Shown here: positions 689 to 56,830 of the stretch, in pieces
Layout of the letters: every line of letters starts with the position of its first letter
Position numbering within the stretch: position 1 is the first letter of the stretch
Assembly: GCA_965224245.1 (NCBI GenBank)
Contig: OZ245046.1
Location: 6,112,001-6,176,000 of the forward strand
Length of the DNA: 64,000 nt
Direction: 5' to 3'
Source: Candidatus Eiseniibacteriota bacterium
GTDB taxonomy: Bacteria; Eisenbacteria; RBG-16-71-46; CAZAMP01
Program-made: the position numbers and the translations under genes
The notes under the pieces: model-generated
Seen by the model: the letters and a program-made list of their open reading frames with translations, nothing else
Database searches by the model: none
Told to the model about the DNA's origin: nothing

Positions 689-698
689 TGCCGGGCGC

Positions 699-1142: not shown

Positions 1143-1185
1143 GGGGCGGGGTCGTGCGGCGTTCCATCGCCCCGGGGGGTACGAC

Positions 1186-3413: not shown

Positions 3414-3438
3414 ATGTGAACCGGGGAATGCGTCTTGA

Positions 3439-3664: not shown

Positions 3665-3687
3665 TCCCGCCCCCGGGGGTGTGCGTG

Positions 3688-16958: not shown

Positions 16959-16970
16959 GCACTCTTTGAA

Positions 16971-29158: not shown

Positions 29159-29314
29159 CGTGACCCCCCGAGGTTGCAGACCCGTTACCGGGAACGGGCG
29201 ATCCTCGTGGGCCACTCCCCGAAGAGACCACCCCTGCTGTGTTACGCGCAGGAGGGGGATGGAACCGGCCACGAAAAGGCAGGAACGGGGCTGTCGAACC
29301 CGGAGAGGGACTGG

Positions 29315-29884: not shown

Positions 29885-30016
29885 ACTCGACTCCCCCTTC
29901 AGCCGACTCCGAATGCTGCTATATACTAGCAAAGAAGTCACTTCAGGCGATTGCCGGTGATCTCCGCGTCCTCGTGGCGCCGGACGCCGGGCTCGTTCGA
30001 TCGACGCCGGGGGCCG

Positions 30017-37239: not shown

Positions 37240-38573
<1,334 letters not shown>

Positions 38574-38623
38574 GGAGGTATCCTCTCAAGGAATACACCC
38601 TCCGGCAAACCCGGCGTGGTTCA

Positions 38624-38750
38624 CAATGACGAGAGGATCCGATCGCGATCGGTGAGCTTTGGGCGCTTGACAGTGCGTTGGTAGACGGCGAGTTGGTGGC
38701 GGAGGACGGCGTTCTCGAGTCGAAGACGGGAGTGGGAGACGAAGGTCCCT
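38624..38750 (-). pseudogene. N-terminal fragment of an rve-integrase-type transposase cut by the IS3
   Basis: Minus strand reads SRLRLENAVLRHQLAVYQRTVKRPKLTDRDRIL up to the IS3 end. Confidence 0.65.
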
Positions 38751-38888
38751 GCGCCCGTTCGTGCGCCATAGTCGCTCACCCTCTCTTGCGAGAGGCTAAG
38801 TTGTCGCGAGGAAGGCTAATCTACCGGAAGAAACCCTGGCTAGGCACGGATGGAGCAGGCCCTGGCTAGGTGTAACGTCCGAAAGCGG

Positions 38889-38956
38889 GTGCGCCGTGAA
38901 GAGCCCACGACATCCAGCGGGTAAGCCCGGCGACTGGCCGCTCCAGCCGGAAGCAG
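38889..38956 (+). ncRNA. Group II intron 5'-end remnant
   Basis: GTGCGCCGTGAAGAGCCCACGACATCCAGCGGGT...CGCTCCAGCCGGAAGCAG; preceded by TGTAACGTCCGAAAGCGG. Confidence 0.75.
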
Positions 38957-39043
38957 CGGTTCGCGATGTGTTCTTGGGGGGCAGGTAGGACTCGAACTCG
39001 CAGGGCCTTTGACTCGAACGGGTTGTTCGACGTTCCGCGTCGA

Positions 39044-39136
39044 GTCGCGAGCGCCCCGGTGGACTGCTGAGGTACTACCATCGGGAGGCGGCGTGATGGG
39101 GCGGTTCTGGGCCCGGTTCAATTGTTTGACGCAACG
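39044..39136 (+). mobile_element. 3' end and right IR of an rve-integrase IS
   Basis: GTCGCGAGCG..GGTGG.CTGCTGAGGTACT.CCATCGGGAGGCGGCGTGATGGGG nearly identical to 60407-60464; ends AATTGTTTGACGCAACG. Confidence 0.75.
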
Positions 39137-39194
39137 CTGCGAAGTCGGATGGAGGCGCGGCTCCGGTGTGCAGTCGGTCTTCGGCATGGACACA

Positions 39195-39632
39195 CTAACG
39201 CGCCCGCCCCGGATCATCGTCCCCCTCAGGTTCGTACGCCGCCAGCTCCCGGATGGTGAGCGATCCAACCGTCGTGTCGAACTGATCGCGCACTCGCGCC
39301 CAGTGCTCGTGAAGCGGACACGCCACGAGGCTGTTGCACTCCGGGTGGCCCAAGATGCAGCGCTTCTCGGCGAGACGCCGTCCCTCCACCGCGACGAGGA
39401 CGTCGTCCACGGTGATCTGTCCGGGGGCACGCGCCAGCACGAACCCCCCGCCCCGGCCCTTCCGAGACCTGACCAGGCGCTCCTGCACGAGCCTCTGAAG
39501 GATCTTGGCCAGGAAGGGTCGGGGGACGTCCGCAGCATCGGCGATGTCGCGGGCCAGGGTGGGACCGCGATCGGCCACGCGACCGAGATGGACGAGTGCA
39601 CGCAACGCGTACTGACAGGTTGGTGAGATCAT
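39195..39632 (-). CDS. Rrf2-family Fe-S transcriptional regulator
   Basis: YALRAL, FLAKILQRL, SRKGRGGGF, three Cys in RCILGHPECNSLVACPLH. Confidence 0.92.
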   Translation of the reverse strand: MISPTCQYALRALVHLGRVADRGPTLARDIADAADVPRPFLAKILQRLVQERLVRSRKGRGGGFVLARAPGQITVDDVLVAVEGRRLAEKRCILGHPECNSLVACPLHEHWARVRDQFDTTVGSLTIRELAAYEPEGDDDPGRAR

Positions 39633-39754
39633 GCGCCGCCGATCTTGTGAGCATGGCAGAGTTGGAGATCCAAGGATCTTCCATAGCCCCGGATGTCACG
39701 CGTCAGTGGTTCCGCGAGCCGGGCTGGAGGGTCGACCATCATCCCTCTCCATCT

Positions 39755-39812
39755 TTACATGTGTAGCATGTCCGATAATACTTGACTACAGGATCCTTTT
39801 TTCTGAAAGTTT
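39755..39812. promoter_or_regulatory. AT-rich divergent promoter region, possible Rrf2 operator
   Basis: AT-rich patch between the Rrf2 gene and the operon; ATACTTGACTA (39778-39788) fits an IscR type-1 half site; TGTAG..CTACA dyad. Confidence 0.4.
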
Positions 39813-39850
39813 CCACGGAGGGCCTGCATGATGCACGGAGCGGCACCCCG

Positions 39851-41806
39851 GTGACCACTTCCACGACGAGACGTCGTGCCTCAGCCCCGCACCTCCACGT
39901 GGAGGTGCCAGGGGCCGGCTATCACCGCGAGCTCGTCTCATGCCAGCAAGCATGTCCCGTTCGCACCGACGCTCGCGGCTACGTCCGCGCCATCGCGGAT
40001 GGGCGCTTCGACGATGCCTATCTCATCGCCCGCGGCCCCAATCCCTTCGCCTCGATCTGTGGGCGCATCTGCGGCGCGCCCTGCGAGGCAGCGTGTCGGC
40101 GGGGTCGGATCCCGCGCGTCGATGCCGAAGGTCGGTACCTAGGCGACGATCGGCCCGTCGCGATCCGGGCGCTGAAGCGGGTCGCCAGCGAGCAGTACGG
40201 CGCCGACGAGCGGTCGCCGGACCGGATCCTCGACGACATCAGGGAACATGTGCCCGGCGCATGTGCGGACGCGGAGGAGATGGCTGCTCTCGTGCGGAGC
40301 CGCGTGCGAGGTGGCTTCGAGCCGGCGACGGGGGAGCCGGTCGCCATCGTCGGGGGTGGGCCCGCGGGTCTCAGCGCCGCACACGACCTCGCGCTCCTCG
40401 GCTTCAAGCCGATCGTCTACGAGTCCGAGCGCGTCGCCGCGGGGATGCTCCATCTCGGCGTTCCCGCGTATCGGCTTCCGCGCGATCTGATTCGCCACGA
40501 GGTCGCGGTCATCGAGGCCCTGGGAGTGGAGATCCGCTACGGCACGGCGGTCGGAGACGCCGTCACGTTCGAGGCGCTGCGCCGCGAACATGCCGCCGTC
40601 ATCGTCGCCGTGGGCGCCAAGCGATCGCGCTCGCTGGAGCTGGAGGGCGAACGCGGACCGTTCGTCTACGGCGGTGTCGACGTCCTGCGTTCCATCGCAC
40701 TGGACGAACCCATCGACCTCGGAAGCGATGTCGTCGTCATTGGAGGCGGGAACGTTGCCTATGACGTCGCCCGGACGGTGCTGCGTCAGGCCGCCTACGA
40801 CGCGGCACGGGCAGTCGCCCGGCTGCCGCGGACGCGGACCGTGAGTCTCGTCTCGCTCGAAGGCCTCGAAGAGATGCCCGCCGACACGATCGAGATCGTC
40901 GAGGGCGACGAGGAGGGCATCCGTCGCATCAACGGCTGGGGACCCCTCGAGATCCAGCGCGAGGGTGCGCGCGTCATCGGAGTCGTGTTCCGCCGGTGCC
41001 TGCGCGTCTACGACGACGAGCGCCGCTTCTCGCCGATCTTCGACGATCAGCAGCAGACGGTGCCGTGCGACACGGTGCTCCTGGCGACGGGTCAGGTACC
41101 GGATCTCTCCTTTCTTCATCCCGGCGGTGAGGACATCGAGGAGGCGCGGCCGGGCTGGCCGCGCATCGATCAGAACTCACTTGCCACGACGGCGCCCGGC
41201 GTGTTCGTCGCGGGTGACCTGGCGCACGGCACGAGGCTGCTCATCGATGCGGTTGCCTCCGGCAAGCGCGCCGCTCGCTCCGTCTACCAATATGTGACGG
41301 GGCGCACCGTGCATCCCCGCATGGTCGAGTCATATCTACCGATCGAGCGGTACCGGCGTGAGCTCGGCTACGAGACGCTGCGCCGTGTCGAGGTGCCGGC
41401 GCTCCATCCGAAAGAGCGTCTGGATGACCCCTCCGCCGTGGTCGAGATCGGCTTCGATCCGGATGCCGCGACGAGGGAGGCGTCGCGGTGTCTCGACTGT
41501 GGCGTTACGCCCGTGTTTGACGGCTCACGATGTGTGCTATGCGGCGGTTGCGCGGACGTTTGCCCCACGCAGTGCCTGAAGCTCGTCGCCCTCTCACGGA
41601 TCGTCCCCACTGCTGATCTGGACGCTTGCATCGAGCGATCCCTCGGGAGCGACGTCGACATCGGCGGGCATTCAGCCATCGTGAAGGATGAAGACCGCTG
41701 CATTCGCTGTGGCCTCTGCGAGCAGCGATGTCCCGTCCAGGCGATCTCCATGGAACGCGTGTGTTTCGCCGTCGACTGGCAATGGAATGGAGGAGCACGG
41801 AAGTGA
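39851..41806 (+). CDS. GltD/SudA/NfnB-like FAD- and NAD(P)-binding oxidoreductase with N- and C-terminal 4Fe-4S clusters
   Basis: CQQACP, ICGRICGAPCEAAC, GGGPAG, GGGNVA, FVAGD, RCLDC, CVLCGGCADVCP, CIRCGLCEQRCP; no signal peptide. Confidence 0.9.
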   Translation: MTTSTTRRRASAPHLHVEVPGAGYHRELVSCQQACPVRTDARGYVRAIADGRFDDAYLIARGPNPFASICGRICGAPCEAACRRGRIPRVDAEGRYLGDDRPVAIRALKRVASEQYGADERSPDRILDDIREHVPGACADAEEMAALVRSRVRGGFEPATGEPVAIVGGGPAGLSAAHDLALLGFKPIVYESERVAAGMLHLGVPAYRLPRDLIRHEVAVIEALGVEIRYGTAVGDAVTFEALRREHAAVIVAVGAKRSRSLELEGERGPFVYGGVDVLRSIALDEPIDLGSDVVVIGGGNVAYDVARTVLRQAAYDAARAVARLPRTRTVSLVSLEGLEEMPADTIEIVEGDEEGIRRINGWGPLEIQREGARVIGVVFRRCLRVYDDERRFSPIFDDQQQTVPCDTVLLATGQVPDLSFLHPGGEDIEEARPGWPRIDQNSLATTAPGVFVAGDLAHGTRLLIDAVASGKRAARSVYQYVTGRTVHPRMVESYLPIERYRRELGYETLRRVEVPALHPKERLDDPSAVVEIGFDPDAATREASRCLDCGVTPVFDGSRCVLCGGCADVCPTQCLKLVALSRIVPTADLDACIERSLGSDVDIGGHSAIVKDEDRCIRCGLCEQRCPVQAISMERVCFAVDWQWNGGARK

Positions 41807-42294
41807 CCACCAGACCCTCCACGGAACGCTCGCGGCTCGATCCCGATCCCATGCCGCGTCGCGACTTTCTCGGAATCGCGGCGTTCTGGTCCGCGATGGT
41901 CGCGGGACTGCTGGCGATGGTCGGGATCGGGCGGCTGCCTCGTGCTGCCGTGCTTCCATCACCTTCGCGCCGCTTCCGGGTGCAGCTCCCGGAGTCCCTC
42001 ACGCCGGGCAGCCCCTTCCTGCCCCCTGGACGCGCGGTGGCGGTGATCCGCGATCGCGATGGAGGGGTGTTCGCGATCTCGACCGTGTGCACGCACCTCG
42101 GCTGCATCGTCAAGGAGGCCGCCGACGGCTTTCACTGCCCATGCCACGGATCTCGTTTCGGGCTCAACGGTGAACTCGTCCAGGGCCCCGCTCCGAAGGG
42201 CCTGCCCTGGCTCGCGGTGACCCATGTCTCGGGTGACATGTGGATGGTGGATGAAGACCAGCCGGTGCCAGCGGGAACGAAGGTGATGGCATGA
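41803..42294 (+). CDS. Rieske 2Fe-2S protein (Tat-exported)
   Basis: RRDFL plus TM helix; CTHLGC and CPCHGS. Confidence 0.93.
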   Translation: MTTRPSTERSRLDPDPMPRRDFLGIAAFWSAMVAGLLAMVGIGRLPRAAVLPSPSRRFRVQLPESLTPGSPFLPPGRAVAVIRDRDGGVFAISTVCTHLGCIVKEAADGFHCPCHGSRFGLNGELVQGPAPKGLPWLAVTHVSGDMWMVDEDQPVPAGTKVMA

Positions 42295-43886
42295 ACGTCG
42301 AGGGCGAGAAGCCGATCGTGGCTCGTGGTCACGGGGGAGCCGAGGCGCCCGATGCGCCCGCTCTCAGCCGGTACCTGGAGAACCTGCGACGAACGCATCG
42401 ACGATTCGTGTCCGCGGTCTTCCGGTCCGGCTGGCCGCGCTCGGACCGGAGCCGGTCACTGTTCGTGTTCGGCAGCGTGTTCTTGCATCTCCACTCGGTA
42501 CGCGTACATCGCTGGACCTTGCGGTGGCGTACGACGGGAGGGCTGGGCGTTGCAGCCGGGTCCGCATTCGTTCTCACGCTCATCACCGGCGTGCTGCTCA
42601 TGTTCTATTACAAGCCCTACCCCGACGTGGCCTACGAGTCGATGAAGGACATCCACTTCGTCGTCCCCACCGGGCGCTTCATCCGGAACATCCATCGCTG
42701 GGCCGCCAACGTGATGGTGATCTGCGTCTTTCTGCACATGGCCCGAGTATTCTACACTGGCGGATACCGGTCGCCGCGCGAGTTCAACTGGGTCATCGGC
42801 ATGGCGCTTCTCGCGACGACGCTGGGACTCTCCTTCACGGGCTACCTTCTACCCTGGGATCAGCTCGCCTACTGGGCCATCACGATTGGCGCCAACATTG
42901 CCCAGTCCCCTCGTGAGATCACCGACGCCCTCCAGATCACGGACTCCTTCGACATCGGAGGGCTCCAGAGACTCTTGCTCCTCGGTTCGGATGAAGTCGG
43001 AGAGGAGGCGCTGATCCGCTTCTATCTTCTTCACGTGATGGTCCTCCCGCTCGTTCTCGTGTCCCTGCTCGCCGTTCACCTCTGGCGCGTCCGAAAGGAC
43101 GGCGGGATCGTGCGCCCTGTGGACGCCGATCGCCGTCTCCCCGCTCCGGATCCAGAGACATACCCCGTGTTCACCGAGGCGCCGCAGAGGACGTACCAGC
43201 TCGCGGCCGTCGTACGTGGTCGAACGCCGGCGGTCGGCAACGGACCCGAGAACACGCTGCCCTCGATGCCCCACCTCTTCTACGCCGAGGCCGGTGTGTT
43301 CATGCTGACCACGCTGATCTGCCTCGCACTGGCTCTGGTTGCCGACGCTCCGCTCAAGGAGATCGCGAACCCCAACGTGCCCGAGAACCCGGCCAAGGCG
43401 CCGTGGTACTTCCTCGGTCTACAGGAGCTCGTGGCGTTCTCGGCGTTCATGGGAGGGATCGGAATCCCCGGCGTGGTGCTCATCGGTCTCGGCCTGATCC
43501 CCTTCCTGGAGCGCGAGAAGCAGGATACGGGGCTCTGGTTCGCCGGACCGGGCGGTCTGGGTACAGTCCTCCGATCGGCCGCGTTCGGGTTCGGCGCCGT
43601 ACTCGTCGTCGAGACGATGGCGATCCGCCTGGGCTGGATCCGGCAGTGGTGGCCCGATGCCCCACAGCTTCTCATCACCGCACTGAATCCGGGCACGGTC
43701 CTGGCGCTGCTCTACGCATGGTTCTCTCTTCACATCGTTCGCCGTCACGACTCCACGCGTGCGGGCGCCGTCGCGCTCTTCACGTGCTTCCTGTGTGGCT
43801 ACATCGTCCTGACGGTCATCGGCGTTCACTTCCGTGGCCCGAACTGGGAGTTCTTCTGGTCTCCCGGTCAATGGCCAGGACACTGA
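42291..43886 (+). CDS. Cytochrome b of a Rieske/cytb complex (unsplit)
   Basis: Heme His in IRNIHRW, FLHMAR, YLLHVM, AVHLW; TGYLLPWDQ; PEWY-equivalent APWY. Confidence 0.93.
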   Translation: MNVEGEKPIVARGHGGAEAPDAPALSRYLENLRRTHRRFVSAVFRSGWPRSDRSRSLFVFGSVFLHLHSVRVHRWTLRWRTTGGLGVAAGSAFVLTLITGVLLMFYYKPYPDVAYESMKDIHFVVPTGRFIRNIHRWAANVMVICVFLHMARVFYTGGYRSPREFNWVIGMALLATTLGLSFTGYLLPWDQLAYWAITIGANIAQSPREITDALQITDSFDIGGLQRLLLLGSDEVGEEALIRFYLLHVMVLPLVLVSLLAVHLWRVRKDGGIVRPVDADRRLPAPDPETYPVFTEAPQRTYQLAAVVRGRTPAVGNGPENTLPSMPHLFYAEAGVFMLTTLICLALALVADAPLKEIANPNVPENPAKAPWYFLGLQELVAFSAFMGGIGIPGVVLIGLGLIPFLEREKQDTGLWFAGPGGLGTVLRSAAFGFGAVLVVETMAIRLGWIRQWWPDAPQLLITALNPGTVLALLYAWFSLHIVRRHDSTRAGAVALFTCFLCGYIVLTVIGVHFRGPNWEFFWSPGQWPGH

Positions 43887-43899
43887 GGAGCAGTTCCGG

Positions 43900-45576
43900 A
43901 TGAACGTACGCTCCAACAAGCACCTGTTGTTGTGGTCGAGTGTGTCGACGGTCGTGCTTCTGGGAACGGCCGCGTACCGTGAAAACGTGCAGCAGGAATG
44001 GCGCCGTCTGCAGCGGGAGTACGGGGAGCGTGCGGTCCTCGCGGGCGGCGAGCGGTTCGATGTCAAGCTCCGTCAGATCGTCGTGCCGGTGCTCGACGTC
44101 TCGGATCGATGTGTGACGTGCCACCTCGGTATGTCGCCGGGCATCTCGGCCATCGAAGGACATCCGGTGTTCGGTTCACACCCAGACGTCGTTCACGACG
44201 TTTCCGAGTACGGGTGCACCACCTGTCACTCCGGTCAAGGGCGGGCCACGGAGAGCGCGGCCGCGCACGGCACGGTCCCCCACTGGCCGGAGCCGATGTT
44301 GCCCCTCGAGAGCTCCTATGCGGGGTGCGGCGTTTGCCACACCCACCTCGACGTTCCGAGCGTCGATTTGCTCGAGCGCGGTACCGCCCTGATCGAGCGC
44401 CATGATTGCCTCGCGTGCCACAGGCTCGACGGGCGCGGCGGGACGCTCCGCCCCGGTGGCGCCGGCGGCATGGAAGGTCCCGATCTCTCGCGCGTGGGCG
44501 GGACGGGATATGACCCGGGCTGGTACGAGGCGCATCTTCGCGAGATGGGGCGAGGTGGCTCGGCCTGGACTGCATCCTTCGGTCCCTTACCGGATTCGGA
44601 GCGTCGTCAGATCGAGACCATGCTGTCGACCCGCGTGGGTGCGAGCAAGCTCGTCGAGTCCAAGGCACTCTTCCACTCGCTCGGGTGCCGCGGCTGCCAC
44701 ACGGTCGGCGGCATCGGCGGGGATGACGGGCCCGACCTCTCGCACGTCGGCGATCGCGATCCCGCGCAGCTCGACTTCACACAGGTGCCAGGACCTCACA
44801 CCGTCGCAGCGTGGCTGGCCGAGCACTTCCGTGCTCCGGCGCGGGTCGTCCCGGGTTCGCAGATGCCCGAGCTCGGGCTGACCGAGCCGGAGATCGAGGC
44901 GCTCACCTTCTACATGCTGTCCCTGAGGCAGGGTGAGTTTCCGGGAACGTACTGGCCCGACGATCGTCTGAGCAGCGAGCGTTTCGGACGGCGCGAGTTC
45001 GCGAACGACGGCGCGACGCTCTACGGAACCTTCTGTGCCGCCTGTCACGGTGTGGAGGGACAGGGCATGCGATATGCGGGCATGCCCGCCTTTCCCGCCA
45101 TCGCCCACCCCGATTTCCTGGCACTGGCCAGTGACGAGTTCATCGCGGCCACCATCCGCGCGGGCCGACGAGGCCGGCGAATGCCCGCCTGGGGCCAGTC
45201 GAGCGGAGGGCTCCGGGAAGAGGAGATCGACGCCGTGGTCGCGCACATCCGCATCCTCGGCGCTGTCCGCCAGGAAGCGGACGAACGTCCTCGCCGATGG
45301 GTTCGAGGGAAGCCGGACCAGGGCGCCCGGCTGTTCGAGCACCACTGCGCATCGTGCCACGGTACGGACGGCAAGGGGAATGAAGGCCCCTCGCTCGCGG
45401 ACCCCGTGTTCCTGAACCACGCCACCGACTTCTACCTCTTCGAGTCCATACGACGGGGTCGCCGCGGCACCTCGATGCCGGGCTTCGGTACGCCCTCCGT
45501 TTCTCGACCCACGCTTTCGAGCCAGGAGATCGAATCGATCGTCGCATTCATCCGCACGTGGGAGGTTCCGCAATGA
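43900..45576 (+). CDS. Membrane-anchored multiheme cytochrome c (7 CxxCH)
   Basis: CVTCH, CTTCH, CGVCH, CLACH, CRGCH, CAACH, CASCH; N-terminal hydrophobic helix. Confidence 0.92.
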
Positions 45577-48500
45577 CGGATCAGCAGACACGCCGGCGGT
45601 TCCTTCAGCTCACGAGTACCGCGGGCTTCGGTGCGTTCATCGCATCGGCAACGCGCGGCTGGGCGCTCGACGCAGTGGACAATCCCCTGGCCCACTATCC
45701 CGGCCGGGACTGGGAGCGAGCCTACCGTGATCTGTGGAAGGTCGATTCTGACTTTCACTTCGTATGCGCGCCGAACGACACTCACAACTGTCTGCTGAAG
45801 GCTCATGTGCGGTCCGGTGTCATCGCGCGGATCGGTCCCAGCATGCGTTACGGCGAGGCCACCGATCTCGACGGAAACCGTGCGTCTCATCGCTGGGATC
45901 CGCGAATCTGCCAGAAGGGCCTCGCCTTGACCCGCCGGTTCTACGGGGATCGGCGCCTTCGCCACTGCATGGTGAGAGCCGGCTTCAAACGGTGGGTCGA
46001 GGCAGGGTTTCCACGAAACGCCGACGGCACGCCCCCACGGGAGTTCTTCAACCGAGCACGCGACGAATGGGACCGAGCGAGTCACGAGGAGGCCGCCGAT
46101 CTCGTGGCACGCACCCTGATCGACATAGCCCGTACCTACAGTGGTGAGACGGGCGCGGACCTCCTTCGCGCGCAGCACTACGACGAGGAAACGATTGTCG
46201 CGGCACGGGGAGCCGGGACGCAGGTCATGAAGTTTCGGGGCGGAATGCCACTTCTCGGCGTGACCCGCGTGTTCGGCATGTACCGCCTGGCCAACTCGAT
46301 GGCACTGCTCGACGCGCACGTGCGCGGTGTCGGTTCCGACGACGCCCTGGGCGGCCGCGGCTTCGACAACTACTCGTGGCACACCGATCTCCCGCCGGGA
46401 CACCCGATGGTCACTGGTCAGCAGACGGTGGAGTTCGATCTGCACGCGGTCGAACAGGCGCGGACGGTTGTCGTCTGGGGGATGAACTGGATCACGACGA
46501 AGATGCCCGACGCGCACTGGCTCACCGAGGCGAGGCTGAAGGGGACGAAGATCGTGGTCATCGCATGCGAGTACTCCGCCACAGCTTCGAAAGCGGACGA
46601 GGCGATCGTCTGTCGTCCCGGCATGACGCCGGCGCTGGCGACGGGGCTCTCGCACGTGATCCTGCGAGATGGTCTCTACGATACCGACTACATCAAGCGC
46701 TGGACCGACCTGCCCATCCTGGTCAGGATGGACACGCTGAAGTACCTTCGTGCGTCGGACGTGTTCGACGGTGAGCTCGCGGAGCTCCAAAACCAGACAC
46801 GCGTGCTTCGAAGGGGAGAGAAGGCCCCTCCGCCGCTTCGGCAAGACGAGCTTCTCATCCCCCAGGCGCTACGTGAAGAGTGGGATGACATGGTGTGGTG
46901 GGATCGCTCCGCCGACCGTCCTTCACGACTCACCCGCGATGATGTCGGACGCCTGTCGAACGTAGGTGATCCGCTTCTGAAGGGCTCGGTCGAGGTCACG
47001 CTCCGGAGCGGCGAGCGGATCCGGTGCCGCCCCGTCTTCGACCTCATCGAGGACTACGTCTCCCACTTCGATCCCGAGACCACGGAAGGACTCACGTGGA
47101 CGCCCGCGGAGTCGGTCGAGCGCCTCGCGCGCGACATCGCCGCCCATCCCGGGGAGACCCTGTTCGCGGTCGGCATGGGTCCCAACCAGTTCTTCAACAA
47201 CGACAACAAGGATCGCGCCGTCTTCCTGCTCGCCGCCCTCACGGGCAACGTCGGACACATCGCGGGAAACGTGGGTTCGTACGCGGGAAACTACCGGGTG
47301 GCACTCTTCAACGGAGTCCCTCAGTACATCAACGAGAACCCCTTCGACCTCGAGCTGGATCCGACCAAGCCCGCGCGTCCACGGATGTACTGGCGTGCCG
47401 AGTCCGCGCACTTCTACAACCACGAGCATCACCCGCTCCGGGTGGGCAACCGTCTCCTCACCGGCCAGACGCACATGCCCACTCCCACCAAGTCGATGTG
47501 GTTTGCCAACGCGAACTCGATCCTCGGCAACGTGAAATGGCACTACAACACGGTGGTCAACGTCCTGCCGAAGATGGAGATGATCTGCGTGCAGGAGTGG
47601 TGGTGGACGGCTTCTTGCGAGTGGGCGGACGTGGTCTTCGCGGCCGACTCCTGGGCCGAGCTGAAGCAACCGGACATGACGGCCTCGGTCACCAATCCGT
47701 TCCTCAACGTGTTTCCGCGCACACCTCTGAAGCGGGTTTTCGACACCAGAGGCGATGCCGAATGCATGGCCCTGGTGGGCGAGAGATTGGCCGAGCATAC
47801 CGGCGACCGGCGTTTCGCCGACGTGTGGAAGTTCGTGCAGGAGGACCGCATGGACGTGTACCTCCAGCGGATCCTCGACCACTCCAGTGCCGTGAAGGGC
47901 TATCGGATCGAGGATCTCGAAGAAAAGGCGAAGCAGGGCGTCCCCGCCCTCATGATGAACCGAACCTATCCCAAGGCGGTCGGTTACGAGCAGGTCACGG
48001 ACTCGCGCCCCTGGTTCACGAGGACGGGACGCCTCGAGTTCTACCGCGACGAGGATGAGTTCATCGAAGCAGGCGAGAACCTGCCCGTGCATCGCGAGCC
48101 GGTCGACTCGACCTTCTATGAGCCGAACGTCATCGTGGCCGGAAGCCACGACGCCATCCGGCCCGCCGGGCCCGATAGCTACGGCATCGACCCGGACGAT
48201 CAGTCCAACGAGGTGCGTCAGGGGAGGAACGTGGTCAAGACGTGGCGCGAGCTCGAGAAGTCGCCCCACCCCCTGGCCAAAGACGGGTACACCTTCGTTT
48301 TCCACACGCCGAAGTACCGACACGGGTCGCACACGATGCCGATCGACACCGACATGATTGCGATCCTGTTCGGCCCGTTCGGTGACATCTACCGACGGGA
48401 CAAACGCATGCCGTTCGTCGGAGAGGGCTACGTGGACATCAATCCGGCCGATGCCCGGGCGCTCGGGGTGGACGACGGCGACTACGTCTGGATCGACTCC

Positions 48501-49031
48501 GACCCCAGCGACCGGCCGTTCCGCGGGTGGCAGAGCAATCAGAAGGACTACGAGTTTTCGCGCCTCATGTGCCGGGCCCGCTACTACCCCGGGACGCCCC
48601 GGGGTGTGACACGCATGTGGTTCAACATGTACGGCGCCACGCCCGGGTCTGTGGAAGGCACGAAGACACGATCCGACGGACTGGCCAAGAACCCGAAGAC
48701 GAACTACCAGGCGATGTTTCGGTCCGGTTCTCACCAGTCGGCCACACGTGGCTGGCTGAAGCCCACCTGGATGACGGACTCGCTCGTACGCAAGGATCTC
48801 TTCGGGCAGTCGATCGGAAAGGGATTCCTGCCCGATGTTCATTGCCCCACGGGAGCGCCCCGGGAGGCGATCGTCAAGATCACCCGAGCCGAACCCGGCG
48901 GGCTCAACGCCGAGGGACTGTGGCGGCCCGCGGCCAAGGGCCTGAGACCATCGTACGAGAGCGATGCGATGCGCCGGTATCTCGTGGGTTCCTTCCTCGA
49001 GAGGGGCGACTCCCATGGAGGTGATGTCTGA
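45573..49031 (+). CDS. nxrA: Periplasmic nitrite oxidoreductase / nitrate reductase alpha subunit (type II DMSO reductase family)
   Basis: Tat motif TRRRFLQ; FS0 motif CAPNDTHNC...RICQKG (Cx3Dx3C as in periplasmic NXRs); putative Mo-ligand Asp in [21 protein letters not shown]. Confidence 0.85.
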
Positions 49032-50158
49032 TGGCACGCGTTCGCAACTGGCAGCTCGACCGGGACATGTCCTACTGGTATCCGGAGAGTCGCCCCCGAC
49101 GACAGTTCGCCGCTGTTTTTGATACGAACAAGTGCATTGCATGTCAGACCTGCACGCTCGCCTGCAAGACGACCTGGACGTCGGGCAAGGGGCAGGAATA
49201 CATGCTGTGGAACAACGTCGAATCGAAGCCCTACGGCTTCTATCCCCTGGGGTGGGATCTCAATGTCCTCGAGAAGCTGGGGGGCGGTAACTGGACGGAA
49301 GGACGGTACGACGGGCGCACGATCTTCGAGGCCGCGGAGGCCGGAGAGCGCGTGCTCGGCTGGCGGCCGGACGACCACGACTACGCGTATCCCAACGTGG
49401 GAGAGGACGACTGCGCCGGCACCGTCGAAGGCGGCGCGTTCATGCAGCTTCCTCACACGCGGTGGTTCTTCTACCTCGCCCGCATCTGCAACCACTGCAC
49501 GTTCCCGGCCTGTGCGGCATCCTGTCCGCGGGGATCGATCTACAAGCGATCCGAGGACGGCATCGTTCTCGTCGATCAGCAGCGGTGTCGGGGATACCGT
49601 GAGTGCGTGAAGGCCTGTCCATACAAGAAGGTCTTCTTCAATCCCACCACGAACACCTCCGAGAAGTGTATCGGCTGTTTCCCCAAGATCGAGATGGGTG
49701 AGCAGCCACAGTGCTTCGTTAACTGCATCGGGAAAATCCGGCACGTCGGTTTCGTGTCACGTCCCGAGGACGCGCGGCCGGACAATCCGATCGATTACCT
49801 GGTCCACGTTCGAAAGGTCGCACTTCCTCTCTATCCGCAGTTCGGTCTGGAGCCGAACGTGTACTACGTGCCGCCGGTTCACGTGCCGCGTCCATTCCTT
49901 CGTCAGATGTTCGGACCTGCCGTGGATGGTGCGATCGAGACCTACCGTCAGTCGGCGGACGATCCCGATCTCACCGCGCTGCTCTCTCTCTTCGGATCGA
50001 GCCACAGGATCATGCATCGGTGGAGACGCACCGGAGATCAGGTGCTCGGACTGGATGCCCGGGGCGACGAGATCGTGCGCGTGCCGGTCAAGGAGCCCGT
50101 GCACGTTCGAAAGGCCTTCGACGATGCACAGGGCGTCGTTCGCTCGAACGTCACGTGA
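49031..50158 (+). CDS. nxrB: NXR/Nar beta subunit (four Fe-S clusters)
   Basis: [70 protein letters not shown]. Confidence 0.9.
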
Positions 50159-50179
50159 GTGGGCTCACGCAAAGGAGCG

Positions 50180-51091
50180 ATGTTCATGAAATCGGGTGCG
50201 AAGGATGGTGGTACCCGGGCAGTTCCCGCGCACGGCAATCGCGCGGCAGTTTCCCTGACAGTCTCCATCGTCGGGATGTCCGTCATCTCCGGGTGCGAAA
50301 GTGAGCCACCAGCGGCGGTGGAGGTGGACGCCGCCCATGTCGAGACGCTCCCGTCGACGCAGGAGGACGCCGCGTGGCGGGGAGCACCGGTCTATATGGC
50401 GCCGCTCCTTCCGCAGGACATGGTCGAACCCCGTCTGCTCGACACCAGCACCGCCACCGTGCGCGTGCAGGCCCTGACCGACGGCGAGAGGGTGGCCTTT
50501 CGGCTCAACTGGGCGGACGACACACTCGACGATCTGCCTGGCGCCTCGCGCTTCTCGGACGCCTGCGCGGTCCAGCTGCCCGCGTCTCCGGGTCCGGACT
50601 TGCCGGCTCCGCAGATGGGCGAGACCGGCAAACCCGTCGAGATGACCTACTGGACGGCTGCCTGGCAGGCGGAGGTCGACGGAAGACCGCTCGAAACGAC
50701 GACGCTCTACCCGAACGCCAGCGTCGATCACTATCCCTTCGAGGCCCCATCGCTCGAGCCCGGATCGGAGGAGCAGCGGGCCATGGAGCTTCGCTATGCG
50801 CCGGCACGCGCAGTGGATCGCCCTGACCACCCGGCGGATCGACCGGTTCAGGATCTCGTGGCGGAGGGACCGGGCACGATCACCGCCGCTGAACGCACCG
50901 CATCGGACGGTCACGGGCGGCGGATGCCATGGGGATGGGACGTCATCCTCGTCCGACCGCTCTCCCCGGTGCTGAGAGCCGCCGCGCGCTCGCACGTCGC
51001 CTTTGCGGTGTGGGACGGAGGCCGTGAGGAGGTCGGCGCGAGGAAGATGCGCTCCGTCTGGATCCCGATGCGACTGGGAGGGACACCGTGA
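50180..51091 (+). CDS. Heme b gamma subunit (EbdC/NxrC-like), putative lipoprotein
   Basis: ISGC lipobox; VAFRLNWAD, FSDACAVQLP, PQMG, VAFAVWDG..GARK; follows the beta subunit. Confidence 0.8.
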   Translation: MFMKSGAKDGGTRAVPAHGNRAAVSLTVSIVGMSVISGCESEPPAAVEVDAAHVETLPSTQEDAAWRGAPVYMAPLLPQDMVEPRLLDTSTATVRVQALTDGERVAFRLNWADDTLDDLPGASRFSDACAVQLPASPGPDLPAPQMGETGKPVEMTYWTAAWQAEVDGRPLETTTLYPNASVDHYPFEAPSLEPGSEEQRAMELRYAPARAVDRPDHPADRPVQDLVAEGPGTITAAERTASDGHGRRMPWGWDVILVRPLSPVLRAAARSHVAFAVWDGGREEVGARKMRSVWIPMRLGGTP

Positions 51092-51723
51092 GAACCGGAT
51101 CTTCCTCGACACAGCTCGTCCGCTCCGCTGCCGAGTGGCGACTTCTCGGCCTGCTTTTTGAGCGGAAACGCCCGGACACGCTGTCGGAGATCCGGTCACT
51201 TTCGGAGGAGATCGCTGACGCGCTGCTCGGGAAGGCTGCTGACCGCATCGACGACGTGACCTCGGCTCAGTACATCGACGCGCTGGGCCCGGGAGGACTG
51301 GTTCCTGCCCGCGAGGTTGCGTACCGCGGTCGAGAGGATCCGGGCCAGATCATCGCGGACGTATCAGGGTTCTATGATGCCTTCGCCTTCAAGCCGACCG
51401 TCGAGGACCCACCGGATCATGTCGCCGTCGAGTGCGGCTTCGTGGGCTACCTCTTCCTGAAGCAGGCCTACGCCGTCTCGGCTGGGGATCAGGAGAGGAC
51501 GCAGCTCACGTGTGGAGCGCGCGAACGCTTCGTCGACGCCCATCTCCAGCACTTTGCCCGGCCTCTCGCGGAGCGCCTCGTGGCAATCCAGCACCCAGTC
51601 CTCTCCCGGGCTGCTCTCGCGCTGCAGGATCGCGTGGGGCCGGCTCCCGTTCCCGTCTCCCTCGATACGGACATGGAGGCATTGGGGGGTGATCACGCGT
51701 GTGGATCGTGCGGCCCACGGTGA
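51088..51723 (+). CDS. TorD/DmsD/NarJ-family molybdoenzyme chaperone
   Basis: VSGFYDAFAF, PPDHVAVECGFVGYL, FVDAHL. Confidence 0.85.
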   Translation: MRTGSSSTQLVRSAAEWRLLGLLFERKRPDTLSEIRSLSEEIADALLGKAADRIDDVTSAQYIDALGPGGLVPAREVAYRGREDPGQIIADVSGFYDAFAFKPTVEDPPDHVAVECGFVGYLFLKQAYAVSAGDQERTQLTCGARERFVDAHLQHFARPLAERLVAIQHPVLSRAALALQDRVGPAPVPVSLDTDMEALGGDHACGSCGPR

Positions 51724-51824
51724 AGAGAGACGAGTCCCCTGATCGCCCAGGATCTGACGTGTCAATGCAATCGGAGGACGCAAGCGAGTGGACGGCGAAT
51801 CTCACGCCTGACCGGTCGTTACAC

Positions 51825-51849
51825 CTCGGTCGCATTCTCTGACCCTACG
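51825..51849 (-). repeat. Unoccupied rve-IS terminal repeat / intron target motif
   Basis: Minus strand CGTAGGGTCAGAGAATGCGACCGAG matches the spliced target of the 53361 intron at 21/25. Confidence 0.7.
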
Positions 51850-52019
51850 AGGGCCGCAACGCAGTGAACCCACGGGTGGCCTCGACAAACAATGGTTCCG
51901 GAGGCGGAGCTCTAGGGTCCGGCGAAGGCAGCATGGCGTATCGCAGACTGACTGACGCGGCACGTCACGCCGGCGGGGTGGGAGGGACGGCACGGTGACA
52001 ACGACGCGCTGAGCAACTG

Positions 52020-52229
52020 GAGAAGAGATGGATACACGAGACGCTGGGACTCTACGATGATTACCGGGTTCGCTGGTCCGCGTCGGCAGCCACTCCGGCT
52101 CGATGAGTCTCATAACCCTTGGCGCGAAGCATGCAGGAGCGCGTAGTGCGGGAAATCCGCACGCTGCGTGCGGCGTGGCGGGAGCTGGAAACGGAGTCAA
52201 TGGATCACCGCGCCAGCTCTCGACCCTAC
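52020..52229 (+). ncRNA. 3' remnant of a different group II intron (RT C-terminus, DV, DVI)
   Basis: KRWIHETLGLYDDYRVR; DV-like GAGCGCGTAGTGCGGGAAATCCGCACGCTGCGTGC; end ACCGCGCCAGCTCTCGACCCTAC. Confidence 0.75.
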
Positions 52230-52542
52230 CGCGATCGGACGTGAACGACCGGTAATAGCGTCCCTTGAATCGACTGCACAGTGCTCTGACACGTCACGCA
52301 TGGACCGATGCCCACCGACATCGATCCGGGTCGAGAACGTGGTCAGCGGGGTGCGACACCATGGGCTCGCTCCTTCCGGCAAGCGATTCTCGGCGCCCTC
52401 TACTTGCTTTGCTCGATTGCGGCCGCCAGTACTCTCTCATCGTTGTCGTACATGGGAGCCGAAGATGAGATCCTGGTCGGCGACGGCGGCTCCGTGGTGG
52501 GGTCCTCCCACTATGCCGGTTGCTCGGTGTCGCCCGGGGCTA

Positions 52543-53100
52543 CTATCCGATCTCGTCCACACGTACCGGGAATCCCCGATGTGCCTCGCCGCCGACTCCG
52601 AACGCGCGAAAGTCGTACGTGTGAGGAGATCCCGGGAGGGCGAGCGTCACGAACAGGGTCACACCGGCCTCCGGCTCGATCTCGACGTCGATGTTGTCGA
52701 CCACGACGTGACGAACCGCAGGCTGGTCCTCCGATGCGAAGTCGACGTTCAGCTCACCGGTCCACATGCCCTCGTTGGGGTTGTGGAAGTAGATCTCCGC
52801 CTCCACCACGCTCCCGAGGTCATGAAGCTGCATCGCGATCGCCAGGCCGCTGCAGGGGTCTCCCCGGTCGGGGGCGGATTCGGCCGGAGACGCGATCGGC
52901 TCCAGGTACTGAGATCGGGGGTCCCGCATGAGCTTCCAGGAAAGAACGACCGCGCCCACCACGACCGATCGGTCGCTCTCGCCGCCTGGCGAGCGCGCGA
53001 CCGCGGCCGGCGACGACGGGCCTTCGCCGCCGCAGGCGCTCATGAGCGCCACGACCAGCACCACGCCGATCGCGAGTCGGCGGACCTTCGAGCTGCACAA
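52543..53100 (-). CDS. Hypothetical lipoprotein
   Basis: RRLAIGVVLVVALMSAC lipobox; start uncertain. Confidence 0.55.
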   Translation of the reverse strand: MCSSKVRRLAIGVVLVVALMSACGGEGPSSPAAVARSPGGESDRSVVVGAVVLSWKLMRDPRSQYLEPIASPAESAPDRGDPCSGLAIAMQLHDLGSVVEAEIYFHNPNEGMWTGELNVDFASEDQPAVRHVVVDNIDVEIEPEAGVTLFVTLALPGSPHTYDFRAFGVGGEAHRGFPVRVDEIG

Positions 53101-53360
53101 TCCACGGCCTCCTCGAGTTCGTCGGACCGGGACGCCTGGCCCTATGTGCGGTCGGTGTATCGTGGCGCCCCGCTACTACCCGTGCGCAGAAGGGCCGGCG
53201 GAACACATCATGGAGTCGCCGAAAAGATGTCGGTGCGCAGGTGAAGACGTCCGGGACGCGGTAACCGGTTCCAAAACGTCTAGGGCCCGTATTGGGAGAG
53301 AACTCAGGTCATCGCACCGTTGGCGTGTGAGTCGTGGAAAGCCCGTAGGGTCAATGAACT

Positions 53361-55353
53361 GTGCGCCGTGAAAAGGCGGCGACGTCCAGCGGGTGCAAGC
53401 CCCGCCCGGCAACGGATCGCTCCAGCCGGAAGCAGTCGAGCGGCGGAGGAGGTAACGAGTCCGTCGAAGCCTCGATGGAACGAGTCACTTCGGGTGACTC
53501 AGCGCAGCATGCAGGCCGAAACGTGAGTGAACGCTGAGCAGGCCTCGAAAGACCGAGATGCGGGAGCCGACCTGTCAGTTTTTCAGGGAAGGCCGCCGTC
53601 GAGCAGGGAAGAAGCGATAGATGCACCCGCTCGGTCCCGCCGGGGTAGTGGCGTCGGCATGTATGCGAGAGGGACGTCGATCGCAACACGGGAAGCCCCA
53701 TCGGTGAGGGCGTGACCTCAACCGGACTCCCGCGAGGGACAGGCCGGGCCGTATGGGGTGGCGGAGAGGCCCGTAGTAGTGATGAAGCCGGGTAATGCCG
53801 GTGGAGCGAAGGGGCCTTGGGTCGAGGTCAACGTAGGACGTAGCGACAGCCAGGAGAGTGGCCGTGAGCCTGAGACCTCCGGAAACGGTTGGGAAGCTAC
53901 AGGCGACGTTGCATGCCAAAGCGAAGGGATCGCCCGACTACCGGTTCTACACGCTGTACGACAAGGTGTATCGCTCGGACGTGCTCGCGTACGCGTATCG
54001 GCTCTGCCGTCACAACGGTGGAGCGGAAGGCGTCGACGGGCAGTCGTTCGAGGACATCGAGACGTTCGGTCGCGATCGGTGGTTGGACGAACTGACGGAG
54101 GAGCTTCGAACGAAGCGTTACCGTCCGAGGCGGTCCGGCGGGTCCACATCCCCAAGCCGGGCCAGCCGGGGCGAACGCGCCCGCTCGGGATCCCGACGAT
54201 CCGAGACCGGGTGGTGATGACGGCCGCGACGCTGGTGCTGGCACCGATCTTCGAGGCCGACCTCCCACCCGAGCAGTACGCCTACCGTCCGGAGAAGAGC
54301 GCGCTGGACGCGGTTCGCCACGTCCACACGCTGTTGACGTCGCGGCACTGGGAGGTGGTCGACGCGGACCTGTCCGGGTACTTCGATACGATCCCGCACG
54401 CCGAGCTGATGAAGTCGGTGTCGCGTCGCGTCGTGGATCGGCATGTACCACGGCTGATCAAGATGTGGCTCCAGGCACCGGTGGAAGAGACGGACGATCG
54501 GGGTCGGCGCCATCGAACGACCCGGAACAAGGACGAGGGGAGAGGATGCCCACAAGGAGCGCCCATCTCTCCGCTGCTGGCGAACCTCTACATGCGGCGC
54601 TTCATCATGGGATGGAAGGTGCTCGGACACGAGACGCGTCTTCAGGCCCAGATCGTCAACTACGCCGATGACTTCGTGATCTGCTGCCGTGGCTCCGCCG
54701 AGGAGGCGATGGTCACGATGCGGGGCATGATGCGTCGGTTGAAGCTGACGCTCAACGAGGAGAAGACGCGGATCCGTCGGCTCCCGGACGAGTCGTTCGA
54801 CTTCCTCGGGTACACCTTCGGACGATGCTACTCGCGTCGGACGGGCCGCCGATACATCGGTCAGCGCCCGTCGAAGAAGAAGGTGGCAGCGATCTGTCAC
54901 CGGATCAGCGAGTGGACGTCGTCGCGTTGGAGCTTCCTGGACGAGACGGAGCAAGTCGCCCGACTCAACCGGATGATGGTCGGGTGGGCGAACTACTTCT
55001 GCCAAGGTCCGGTGAGCTCCGACTATCGAAGGATCACCGAGCACGCCCGAGAACGGGTGCGCCAGTGGTTGCGACGAAAGCACAAGGTGCAGGGTCGAGG
55101 ATACTCACGCTTCCCCGACGATTACCTGCACGGAGAGCTGGGCCTGGTACAGCTCCGTCTGTGCGATCGCAACGTCCCGTGGGCGAGCGCATGAGTCCTC
55201 GTCCGAGAGCCGGATGCGGGAAACCCGCACGTCCGGTTCGACGAGCGGGAGTGTGGAGACGGAGCAGGGTTCGGATAGTGAGGCACCGGCAGACGAAAGG
55301 GCCGGAGAACAGGCAGGCCGAACCTAAACCACCGCGCCACCTCCCGACTCTAC
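53361..55353 (+). ncRNA. Full-length group II intron
   Basis: 5' GTGCG at 53361; DV GAGCCGGATGCGGGAAACCCGCACGTCCGGTTC at 55207-55239; 3' end CCCGACTCTAC; candidate EBS1 AGTTT (53577-53581) pairs with exon GAACT. Confidence 0.92.
53858..55194 (+). pseudogene. ltrA: Group II intron reverse transcriptase/maturase, one frameshift near 54125, no endonuclease domain
   Basis: KLQATLHAKAK..LYDKVYR..GVDG in one frame; RRVHIPK..RPLGIPTIRDR, DADLSGYFD, PQGAPISP, YADD, FDFLG, GWANYF in another. Confidence 0.9.
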
Positions 55354-56460: not shown

Positions 56461-56830
56461 CTCGCTCGACCTTCGATCTCGTTCCGACTCGGCGAGCACG
56501 GCCTGGAGCAACTCGGCGAGGATCCGTTTGGGCCGACCAGGCCGACGACTCTCCCCGGATCGAGGGCCGCCACGCAGACGAGCCGCTCCCGGAAGGACAT
56601 CGAGACGCGCGCCCCTTCTCCGGTTGCGCTCGTCACGATACGTGTGGGACCGTGTCAATCGGACCTCTCGCGCATGGATTGCCGAAGAGCCGTTATACTG
56701 AGTCGAGCGATCCTCTTTCCGGTACATCGTGGTGCCCAAGGCAAATGGGAGGGACGCCACATCAGGTCGATCCGCGCCGAGAGCGTCGGCGGATCGCCAT
56801 GTCGGACGTGACGTAGGAGACCCTTGCCGC

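Follow-up and report, generated by a model that had tools for sequence, protein, structure and literature searches.

The stretch of DNA analysed here, called the window below, comprises 64,000 nucleotides (nt) of contig OZ245046.1 from Candidatus Eiseniibacteriota bacterium, and at positions 39195-51723 it carries nine intact genes: one on the minus strand, for an Rrf2-family regulator, and eight co-directional genes on the plus strand at 39782-51723. The eight, which we call the cassette, encode an NAD(P)-binding flavoprotein, a Rieske protein, a cytochrome b, a seven-haem cytochrome c, and the three subunits and the chaperone of a molybdoenzyme related to nitrite oxidoreductases (NXR). We propose, with a probability of about 0.6, that the cassette works as nitrate respiration coupled to a quinone cycle (Q-cycle), with a side branch to NAD(P). 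An earlier note on this DNA had described eight same-strand, intact genes with overlapping or adjoining ends, divergent from an Rrf2 regulator with three cysteines, and every one of these genes was found at the open reading frame (ORF) coordinates given here (aa, amino acids; Fe-S, iron-sulfur).

39195..39632, minus strand: Rrf2-family regulator (PF02082, 2.3e-30)
39754..39782, plus strand: sigma-70-like promoter match, 5' of the first cassette gene
39782..41806, plus strand: NAD(P)-binding Fe-S flavoprotein, GltD/NfnB-like, 674 aa (Fer4_20, Pyr_redox_2, C-terminal 2x[4Fe-4S])
41728..42294, plus strand: Rieske [2Fe-2S] subunit (PF00355)
42291..43886, plus strand: fused cytochrome b6-like/subunit IV-like protein, 531 aa (PF00033)
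43834..45576, plus strand: seven-haem cytochrome c, 580 aa (Cytochrom_C, CBB3 and C7 domains)
45558..49031, plus strand: alpha, the molybdopterin catalytic subunit, 1157-aa ORF (Pfam/NCBIfam, PDB match, tree)
49031..50158, plus strand: beta, a four-cluster Fe-S subunit (TIGR03478, 268 bits)
50159..51091, plus strand: gamma, an EB_dh-family haem b subunit (PF09459)
51088..51723, plus strand: TorD/NarJ-type assembly chaperone (PF02613; TIGR03482 below cut-off)

The flavoprotein probably starts at GTG 39851, the cytochrome c is likely to start at ATG 43900, and alpha probably begins at Met6 (ATG 45573), since the database protein of the same genome is 1152 aa long. By their coordinates the Rieske and cytochrome b genes overlap by 4 nt, as do the cytochrome c and alpha genes, given the Met6 start, and the gamma and chaperone genes; alpha and beta overlap by 1 nt, while beta and gamma abut. 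With the likely starts used, junctions that overlap by 1-4 nt or abut point to translational coupling of the cassette genes.

The gene order of the cassette is kept far beyond chance. In a collection holding one genome per species, at least 666 stretches encode a relative of alpha; the locus counts that follow come from the best 77 of these at least 666, with alpha identities of 71-79%, and describe this close family only. Neighbouring genes were sought by tblastn with the window proteins, and only loci whose contig extends far enough were counted. All eight genes were found in the same order and on the same strand in 41 of the 42 loci with both flanks, the exception (L072) being without gamma and chaperone. 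Taken singly, the flavoprotein gene was found in 49/50 loci, the Rieske gene in 56/57, cytochrome b in 58/58, cytochrome c in 67/67, beta in 65/65, gamma in 59/60, and the chaperone in 58/59. The neighbours downstream were variable, the commonest family occurring in 4 of 42 loci. These counts bear out two points that the earlier note had proposed for checking its idea of a single module, namely the co-conservation of the Rieske/cytochrome b and GltD-like genes with alpha and the synteny of all eight genes. A protein search returned, among the matches listed, 120 relatives of alpha at 75-79% identity, labelled as Acidobacteria, 'Deltaproteobacteria', Eisenbacteria, Kryptonia, Latescibacterota, and Limnocylindria.

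Alpha carries a twin-arginine (Tat) signal, TRRRFLQ, at residues 11-17 of the 1157-aa ORF, and an RR motif likewise stands at the start of its homologues. In the alignment the ligands of its FS0 cluster are C70-x3-D74-x3-C78...C118, as against H-x3-C-x3-C...C in NarG of E. coli, and the Cx3Dx3C motif is common to alpha and two Kuenenia-like representatives, P0124 and P0131; both the Tat signal and this motif had been pointed out in the earlier note, and both are there. The Asp in the CDLPP motif of E. coli NarG (D222, PDB numbering), which we take to be the molybdenum (Mo) ligand, has Asp277 as its counterpart in the alignment. When alpha was searched against all PDB sequences, the top match was Kuenenia NxrA (7B04) with 864 bits, compared with 169 bits for PcrA, 131 bits for EbdA, and about 120-125 bits for NarG. 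Beta and gamma likewise found their top solved matches in 7B04, as NxrB (386 bits) and NxrC (62 bits), respectively. A grouping of alpha with the ethylbenzene, selenate, or perchlorate enzymes, which the earlier note had considered, is rejected by these scores, and the tree described below agrees.

Beta has 16 conserved Cys. In gamma, at least 90% of 58 family sequences retain the lipobox residue Cys46 (...ISGC46), Met153, and Lys295, and a scan for hydrophobic segments found no transmembrane segment; by these features gamma is probably a lipid-anchored haem b protein, its haem presumably held by Met153 and Lys295 in the Met/Lys ligation of EbdC. The NCBIfam models of the molybdoenzyme all scored far under their equivalog cut-offs. 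A membrane-bound NarGHI was considered and ruled out: alpha carries a Tat signal, a NarI gene is lacking, and TIGR01580 reaches 135 bits against a cut-off of 1084.

The position of alpha was examined in a maximum-likelihood tree of 42 rows (IQ-TREE quick search, LG+G4, with SH-aLRT values as its only measure of support). The rows were the window alpha, 22 family members from the loci, a Thermopirellula protein, 14 unnamed representatives of 50% clusters, the named NarG of E. coli, Thermus, and Haloferax, and a copy from a Natronococcus plasmid; several of them are long-branched, and some joins outside the group of interest are flagged as doubtful. The window family forms a tight, fully supported clade. 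Nearest to it are, in order, P0121 with the Natronococcus copy, P0127, P0122, and then the pair P0124/P0131, whose scores to 7B04 (1590 and 1133 bits, respectively) mark them as Kuenenia-like. The whole Cx3Dx3C group sits on a long stem with full support (100% SH-aLRT), apart from a Cx3Cx3C group (P0136, P0145, P0146, P0149), from NarG of the haloarchaeal periplasmic nitrate reductase (pNar), and from NarG; the Haloferax NarG clusters with P0245 and P0251, far from the window alpha. The window alpha family is a sister lineage of the anammox-type (Kuenenia-like) NXR clade. Within the family the window alpha pairs, with 99% support, with a groundwater metagenome-assembled genome (MAG) labelled Deltaproteobacteria and not with the two Eisenbacteria copies.

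Two of the more distant alphas are unusual in themselves. The Natronococcus copy lies on plasmid 2 of Natronococcus occultus SP4 (L082, 8995-12198 of the locus) and is an NXR-clade alpha about 50% identical to that of the window; its first ~105 residues, including the Tat signal and FS0, are out of frame, and no coding sequence is listed there. Genes for beta and TorD come next, no Rieske/cytochrome b genes are present at this locus, and a RIC gene and a large gene of the haem-copper oxidase family lie nearby. The other (L081, G005:C1:17815-24171) is the alpha homologue of a class-level relative of the host, 41% identical and with one in-frame TGA, which may encode selenocysteine or mark a broken gene in a different NXR-clade enzyme.

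The Rieske subunit, searched against 177,635 PDB sequences, matched 9rk4 best (60 bits, spanning the whole soluble domain) and also 9rk3 (Kustd1480; 42 bits). Structure 9rk4 is Kuste4569, the Rieske subunit of an anammox complex with an NAD(P) oxidoreductase (PMC12954380; this and the other papers are cited from the excerpts available). The earlier note had stated that anammox Rieske/cytochrome b clusters include NAD(P) oxidoreductases, and the same excerpt agrees. The window Rieske has a Tat-type signal anchor, RRDFLG, with its transmembrane segment at residues 47-65; its cluster ligands are conserved, and its box II, CPCHGSxF, is of the 'SF' type, a signature associated with about +200 to +230 mV (PMC3509893).

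In the cytochrome b, the haem-ligand His pairs H135/H149 and H248/H263 are invariant and have b6 spacing, and the subunit IV-like half has five hydrophobic helices. The position at which a Cys binds haem ci (PMC3509893) is occupied by Gly84, invariant in 40/40 sequences, with the register taken from a b6 alignment that starts five residues downstream. An N-terminal extension of about 85 residues holds an invariant His66 and His73 and a nearly invariant His68. AlphaFold3 models place an extra haem b between the N-terminal His of two anammox cytochrome b copies (PMC12954380), and by analogy His66, His68, and His73 could possibly hold an extra haem here. At the other end of the protein, the last predicted helix carries an invariant Cys499 and, in at least 90% of sequences, Cys502 (CxxC, not CxxCH), and the final residue, His531, is invariant in 40/40 family sequences; b6f and bc1 offer no counterpart that explains these three residues.

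Seven CxxCH motifs occur in the cytochrome c, and at least 90% of 67 family sequences retain each of them; the protein is membrane-anchored and combines four multihaem sites in its N-terminal part with three class I domains. The ExtP, ExtQ, and ExtS models, from the Geobacter selenite/tellurite Ext operon, match the cytochromes b and c weakly and below cut-off. A second cytochrome b is encoded elsewhere in the host genome, at C1:1429556.

The flavoprotein consists of an N-terminal two-cluster domain, a GltD/NfnB-like FAD domain, and a C-terminal polyferredoxin. Its best NCBIfam model, PRK12771 'NAD(P)-binding protein', scored 368 bits, below cut-off. Among solved structures its top match was a chain of the Bfu-type NfnABC (9bov/9bp5, 239 bits), and its C-terminus matched FwdF; 9bp5 and FwdF are also the structural relatives named for Kuste4570 (PMC12954380). 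It has 19 conserved Cys, including two CxxCxxCxxxCP motifs and further Cys pairs. The segment scan found no hydrophobic segment in it, which points to a cytoplasmic location. A complex was predicted from two cytochrome b copies (residues 28-330) and the flavoprotein's C-terminal ferredoxin domain, with 40-row alignments and no controls; its score of 0.04, against a mark of 0.32, is evidence neither of binding nor of its absence.

The regulator scored 111 bits with TIGR00738, above cut-off. Identity with NsrR at the equivalog level was ruled out (NF008240, 43.8 bits against a cut-off of 182), and only the Rrf2 superfamily model passes. Across 26 aligned operon-linked homologues Cys92 and Cys105 are invariant and Cys99 is present in 65%; with its three Cys, the regulator is probably Fe-S based. 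Of 41 loci with an upstream flank, 23 have an Rrf2 gene next to the cassette, usually on the same strand; Crp/Fnr regulators are linked in 4 loci, and a gene for ScdA/RIC Fe-S repair lies downstream in 4 loci.

Gene content, motifs, topology signals, homology, and co-conservation are read directly from the sequences. The order kept in 41 of 42 loci, the coupled junctions, and the unconserved downstream neighbours argue together for one module, and its physical assembly, its catalytic direction, and the role of the flavoprotein are what we infer in the following scheme. Membrane quinol would give up its electrons at the outer (P-side) site of the cassette's own Rieske/cytochrome b complex. The high-potential electron would pass by way of the Rieske cluster to the membrane-anchored seven-haem cytochrome c, then through the haem b of lipid-anchored gamma and the Fe-S clusters of beta to the Mo of Tat-exported alpha, where nitrate would be reduced to nitrite in the periplasm. 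Because a periplasmic enzyme cannot use a NarI-type redox loop to build a proton gradient, energy would be conserved by the Q-cycle, as has been proposed for the haloarchaeal pNar (PMC3509893). The flavoprotein would be a further subunit at the inner face of cytochrome b, connecting the low-potential haem b chain with NAD(P)(H) in either direction: it could accept the second electron and form NAD(P)H (bifurcation), or it could feed electrons from NAD(P)H into the inner quinone site. The Fe-S Rrf2 protein, probably sensing nitric oxide (NO) or redox state, would govern the operon.

A bifurcation scheme was put forward for the anammox Rieske/cytochrome b complexes by Kartal et al., 2013 (in PMC12954380). 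It would be thermodynamically feasible here as well, since nitrate/nitrite is, we infer, as oxidising as the nitrite/NO couple. That the cassette as a whole is an electron-bifurcating quinol:nitrate/NAD(P)+ oxidoreductase, possibly with the extra haem at the N-terminal His, is an idea we hold tentatively and consider rather doubtful.

The earlier note had said that the direction of catalysis cannot be read from sequence. We agree; the context leans to nitrate reduction over nitrite oxidation. With nitrate, Thermogutta terrifontis grows under anaerobic conditions, and its sole reported Nar is THTE_1506-1509, which adjoins the bc genes THTE_1510-1512 in the same order as in the cassette; its NarG is described as a deep lineage (PMC5673643), and elsewhere is placed in the NXR clade (PMC10732223). 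Thermogutta was absent among the 120 proteins listed in a homologue search with the alpha of a Thermoguttaceae MAG (L033). A protein labelled Thermopirellula anaerolimosa is 81% identical to the L033 alpha, which sits in the family clade, and a title cited by PMC11929135 describes Thermopirellula anaerolimosa as an obligate anaerobe. Another lead, Limisphaera, described in the excerpt of PMC13608581 as nitrate-respiring with 'distant NarGHI homologues' and no bc1, could not be linked to the family and was dropped.

We also looked at what else is encoded by the genomes that carry the cassette, in a sample of 50 out of the 77 loci, chosen for having most of the cassette on the contig. Canonical NarG was found in 8/50 carriers and NapA above cut-off in 4/50, with neither in 39/50. 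A strong NrfA match was present in 29/50, and 22 of these 29 are without both NarG and NapA. Two strong NrfA matches contain in-frame stops (G070:C38:57871-59118, one TGA; G053:C1:321080-322342, TAG and TAA). A RuBisCO-family match was found in 8/50 carriers, only one of them strong, and NirK in 0/50 at E <= 1e-40, NirS not having been searched for there. The linkage to Rrf2 and Crp/Fnr regulators and to RIC genes fits anaerobic or NO-stress control. A search of the host's own genome gave two haem-copper oxidases, a canonical NapA (1277 bits), and a clade II-type NosZ (812 bits); RuBisCO, NirK, and cytochrome d1/NirS were not found in it, and NrfA gave a 25-bit match at most.

Several of these observations weigh against nitrate respiration. 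Genes of the haem-copper oxidase family are present in 50/50 carriers, so the argument for nitrate that we had expected from oxidase-free carriers fails; with these and the two oxidases of the host, aerobic nitrite oxidation is not disfavoured by any lack of oxidase. Since the host has NapA, it does not need the cassette to supply a missing nitrate reductase. The fate of nitrite in the host also lacks an explanation, as NirK and NirS were not found and NrfA is represented by the 25-bit match. The NXR of Kuenenia is described as bidirectional (PMC10732223), and NXR enzymes are reversible. The co-occurrence among carriers is only suggestive: these are mostly MAGs, their completeness is unstated, and there is no count of non-carriers. 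The Thermogutta genes are putative orthologues, judged by their description together with L033, which has the full cassette, and Thermopirellula is linked through its alpha. As for the flavoprotein branch, its analogy to anammox is incomplete, because the window cytochrome b is one unsplit chain in which Gly stands in for the haem ci Cys.

It is partly on such points that a different account can be built, in which the enzyme physiologically oxidises nitrite and the electrons pass via alpha, beta, gamma, and the cytochrome c to a terminal oxidase; we judge it unlikely, and judge likewise its corollary that the Rieske/cytochrome b complex and the flavoprotein run in reverse, lifting electrons to quinone and NAD(P)+. 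The oxidases of all 50 carriers and of the host would serve such a pathway, and so would a host that already has NapA and is without recognisable nitrite reductases. What is more, alpha, beta, and gamma are nearest to true NXR and share its Asp FS0 motif, and genes of Planctomycetota and Verrucomicrobiota have been called putative NXRs (bioRxiv 10.1101/2020.05.19.103440; PMC10732223). The family, however, is the sister of the Kuenenia-like clade and does not fall within it. RuBisCO is confined to 8/50 carriers (one strong) and is not found in the host, in a search that did not include markers of the reductive tricarboxylic acid cycle, and of the cultured organisms associated with the family, one respires nitrate and the other is an anaerobe. 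Control by Rrf2 and Crp/Fnr and the RIC genes fit anaerobic or NO-stress conditions, and NrfA co-occurs in 29/50 carriers. Nor do the excerpts available describe, for NXR clusters of nitrite oxidisers, a quinol oxidase strictly tied to them in one operon. The single module of the earlier note stands as regards co-conservation, and of the two directions that it had named the context favours nitrate respiration.

The genes might instead be co-regulated without forming one machine, the cassette then encoding an NXR-type enzyme that accepts electrons from whichever periplasmic cytochrome is at hand, a general second bc complex, and an independent soluble flavoprotein of the NAD(P)H:ferredoxin type. 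The Natronococcus alpha, about 50% identical and adjoined by beta and TorD alone, would suit this, and so would a flavoprotein with no membrane segment. We nevertheless regard it as quite improbable: the eight genes retain their order, strand, and coupling in 41/42 loci from various phyla in spite of lateral transfer, a further cytochrome b in the host is available for general use, and homologous flavoproteins are encoded inside the anammox Rieske/cytochrome b clusters (PMC12954380). A substrate other than nitrate or nitrite (chlorate/perchlorate, selenate, arsenite, or a hydrocarbon) is very improbable. Type II enzymes of the dimethyl sulfoxide reductase family are diverse in their substrates, the NCBIfam matches lie far below equivalog cut-offs, and the cytochromes b and c weakly resemble ExtP, ExtQ, and ExtS, below cut-off. 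Yet NxrA outscores PcrA and EbdA five- to seven-fold, the family belongs with the NXR clade with full support, and a cultured organism reported to have the same arrangement respires nitrate (PMC5673643).

In a promoter and terminator scan of 38400-53800, the promoter match at 39754-39782 was the sole plus-strand site, compared with 1.5 expected from shuffles, and taken alone it is weak evidence; no terminator-like site was found directly after the last cassette gene. Among the sequencing runs listed for 41800-51700 there were four DNA runs from a single study and no RNA run. Within the flavoprotein ORF, in its weakly conserved 5' end and some 110-125 bp downstream from the promoter-like site, a perfect 20-bp palindrome, GCACCTCCACGTGGAGGTGC, occupies 39889-39908; it may serve as an operator, for instance of the divergent Rrf2 protein. 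At 39828-39854 a strong GGAGG is followed by ATGATG, out of frame with the flavoprotein, giving a mini-ORF of 8 codons whose TGA overlaps the likely GTG start of the flavoprotein at 39851. It could encode a leader peptide or be a product of chance.

The cassette lies on a 6.45-Mb contig of a 6.94-Mb genome that is 97% complete and has a single copy of alpha. A mobile element is found on each side of it:

37240..38573, minus strand: insertion sequence of the IS3 family, with an orfA/orfB transposase and a programmed frameshift; lies upstream of the cassette
53387..55353, plus strand: complete group II intron, with domains 1-4, a reverse transcriptase/maturase, and domains 5-6; lies downstream of the cassette

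The IS3 element contains an ORF at 37240-38487 with rve, HTH_21, and rve_3 domains and an ALIL frameshift pseudoknot at 38179-38295 on the minus strand (114 bits). The intron is delimited by RF02003 at 53387-53526 and RF00029 at 55205-55353, with an RVT_1 and GIIM ORF at 53758-55194 between them. An alpha homologue was found in only 3 of 40 relatives (39 related at class level and one, G001, of the same family), two of the matches being at 76-77% identity and the third at 41% with an in-frame TGA; it was absent from G001, the one same-family genome searched. Given this scattered presence, the flanking IS3 element and group II intron, and the Deltaproteobacteria-labelled partner of alpha in the tree, the cassette was probably acquired laterally by its Eisenbacteria-like host.

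The window as a whole looks like a region rich in mobile elements. Upstream, at 272-4776, 8872-10212, and 15345-17701, there are replication genes of phage or plasmid character (DUF669, ERCC4 nuclease, D5-type primase, Dam-like methylase), together with two elements of the IS66 family, one of which has a TnpB-like orf2. Very large secreted proteins with FG-GAP/ASPIC repeats are encoded at 18758-25672, 26819-29272, and 56729-59659 (2304, 817, and 976 aa, respectively); each ends in an FlgD_ig-like domain, of the kind used as a tail for type IX secretion. A gene for an extracytoplasmic function sigma factor (29315-29941) adjoins that of a 1354-aa Ser/Thr kinase-WD40-lectin protein (29951-34015).

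The direction of the enzyme matters beyond this locus, since at least 666 stretches match, their naming is mixed, and some papers infer new nitrite oxidisers: family alphas appear in databases as 'nitrate reductase', 'nitrite oxidoreductase', or plain 'molybdopterin oxidoreductase', and the reading chosen changes the counts of nitrate reduction or nitrification potential in soils, aquifers, and reactors. If nitrate is reduced, the cassette would be a bacterial counterpart to the haloarchaeal bc complex that feeds a periplasmic nitrate reductase; if nitrite is oxidised, the carriers would be unrecognised facultative nitrite oxidisers. Should the bifurcation scheme prove true, it would be present, spread laterally, in hundreds of ordinary bacteria of soil, sediment, and sludge. 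An anammox-type NAD(P)-linked complex with a defined high-potential partner in hosts that can be grown would make the bifurcation hypothesis testable. For the poorly known Eisenbacteria, the cassette would represent an acquisition flanked by mobile elements.

The literature found describes neither the eight-gene unit nor its function beyond partial mentions, Ten Brink et al. 2013 having lain outside its coverage. Among known systems the molybdoenzyme resembles NxrABC of Kuenenia (7B04) in its Tat export, its Cx3Dx3C FS0 motif, its Mo-ligand Asp, and its EB_dh-type haem b gamma, and differs in that the window family forms a tight lineage of its own, with about 42% identity to the Kuenenia-like P0124, and in that its gamma is a predicted lipoprotein. 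For the NXR clusters of nitrite oxidisers and anammox bacteria a joint operon with Rieske/cytochrome b is not described in the excerpts available, whereas the window has one; an excerpt on Methylomirabilis notes 'Nxr' together with a 'non-canonical bc1'. The locus of Thermogutta terrifontis (THTE_1506-1512) has TorD, NarI-like, NarH, and NarG genes and then three bc genes, as in the cassette, although in the excerpt of PMC5673643 the enzyme is treated as a cytoplasmic NarGHI and a flavoprotein is not mentioned.

The earlier note's statement that haloarchaeal pNar is coupled to Rieske/cytochrome b proteins holds for pHM300 of Haloferax mediterranei, where the genes run Rieske, cytochrome b, NarG, NarH, EB_dh, TorD, a layout like that of the window. 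The pHM300 cluster lacks the multihaem cytochrome c and the NAD(P) flavoprotein that the window has, and the haloarchaeal alpha, about 29% (28.8%) identical over half of the window query, falls in another part of the tree and has an Hx3Cx3C FS0 motif. The haloarchaeal cytochrome b is of the Actinobacteria/Thermus type, and nitrate-dependent growth of Haloferax is sensitive to antimycin (PMC3509893).

With the anammox complexes (Kuste4569-4574, Kustd1480-1485) the cassette shares a Rieske protein closest to Kuste4569, a flavoprotein with several clusters that is NfnB/GltD-like in its FAD part and FwdF-like in its polyferredoxin, a b6-like cytochrome, a five-helix subunit IV, and a multihaem cytochrome c in place of cytochrome f. 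On the other hand, the anammox cytochrome b is split, with a separate subunit IV, whereas that of the window is fused and without the haem ci Cys; the Rieske signature is 'SY' in Kuste4569 and 'SF' in the window; and the high-potential partner is an octahaem protein like hydroxylamine oxidoreductase in anammox, compared with an NXR-type molybdoenzyme in the window. The parts of the cassette are thus each known, from NXR-type enzymes, from the haloarchaeal bc-coupled pNar, and from the anammox NAD(P)-linked Rieske/cytochrome b complexes, and the window is a further member of this cassette type, notable for its Eisenbacteria-like host and its mobile-element flanks.

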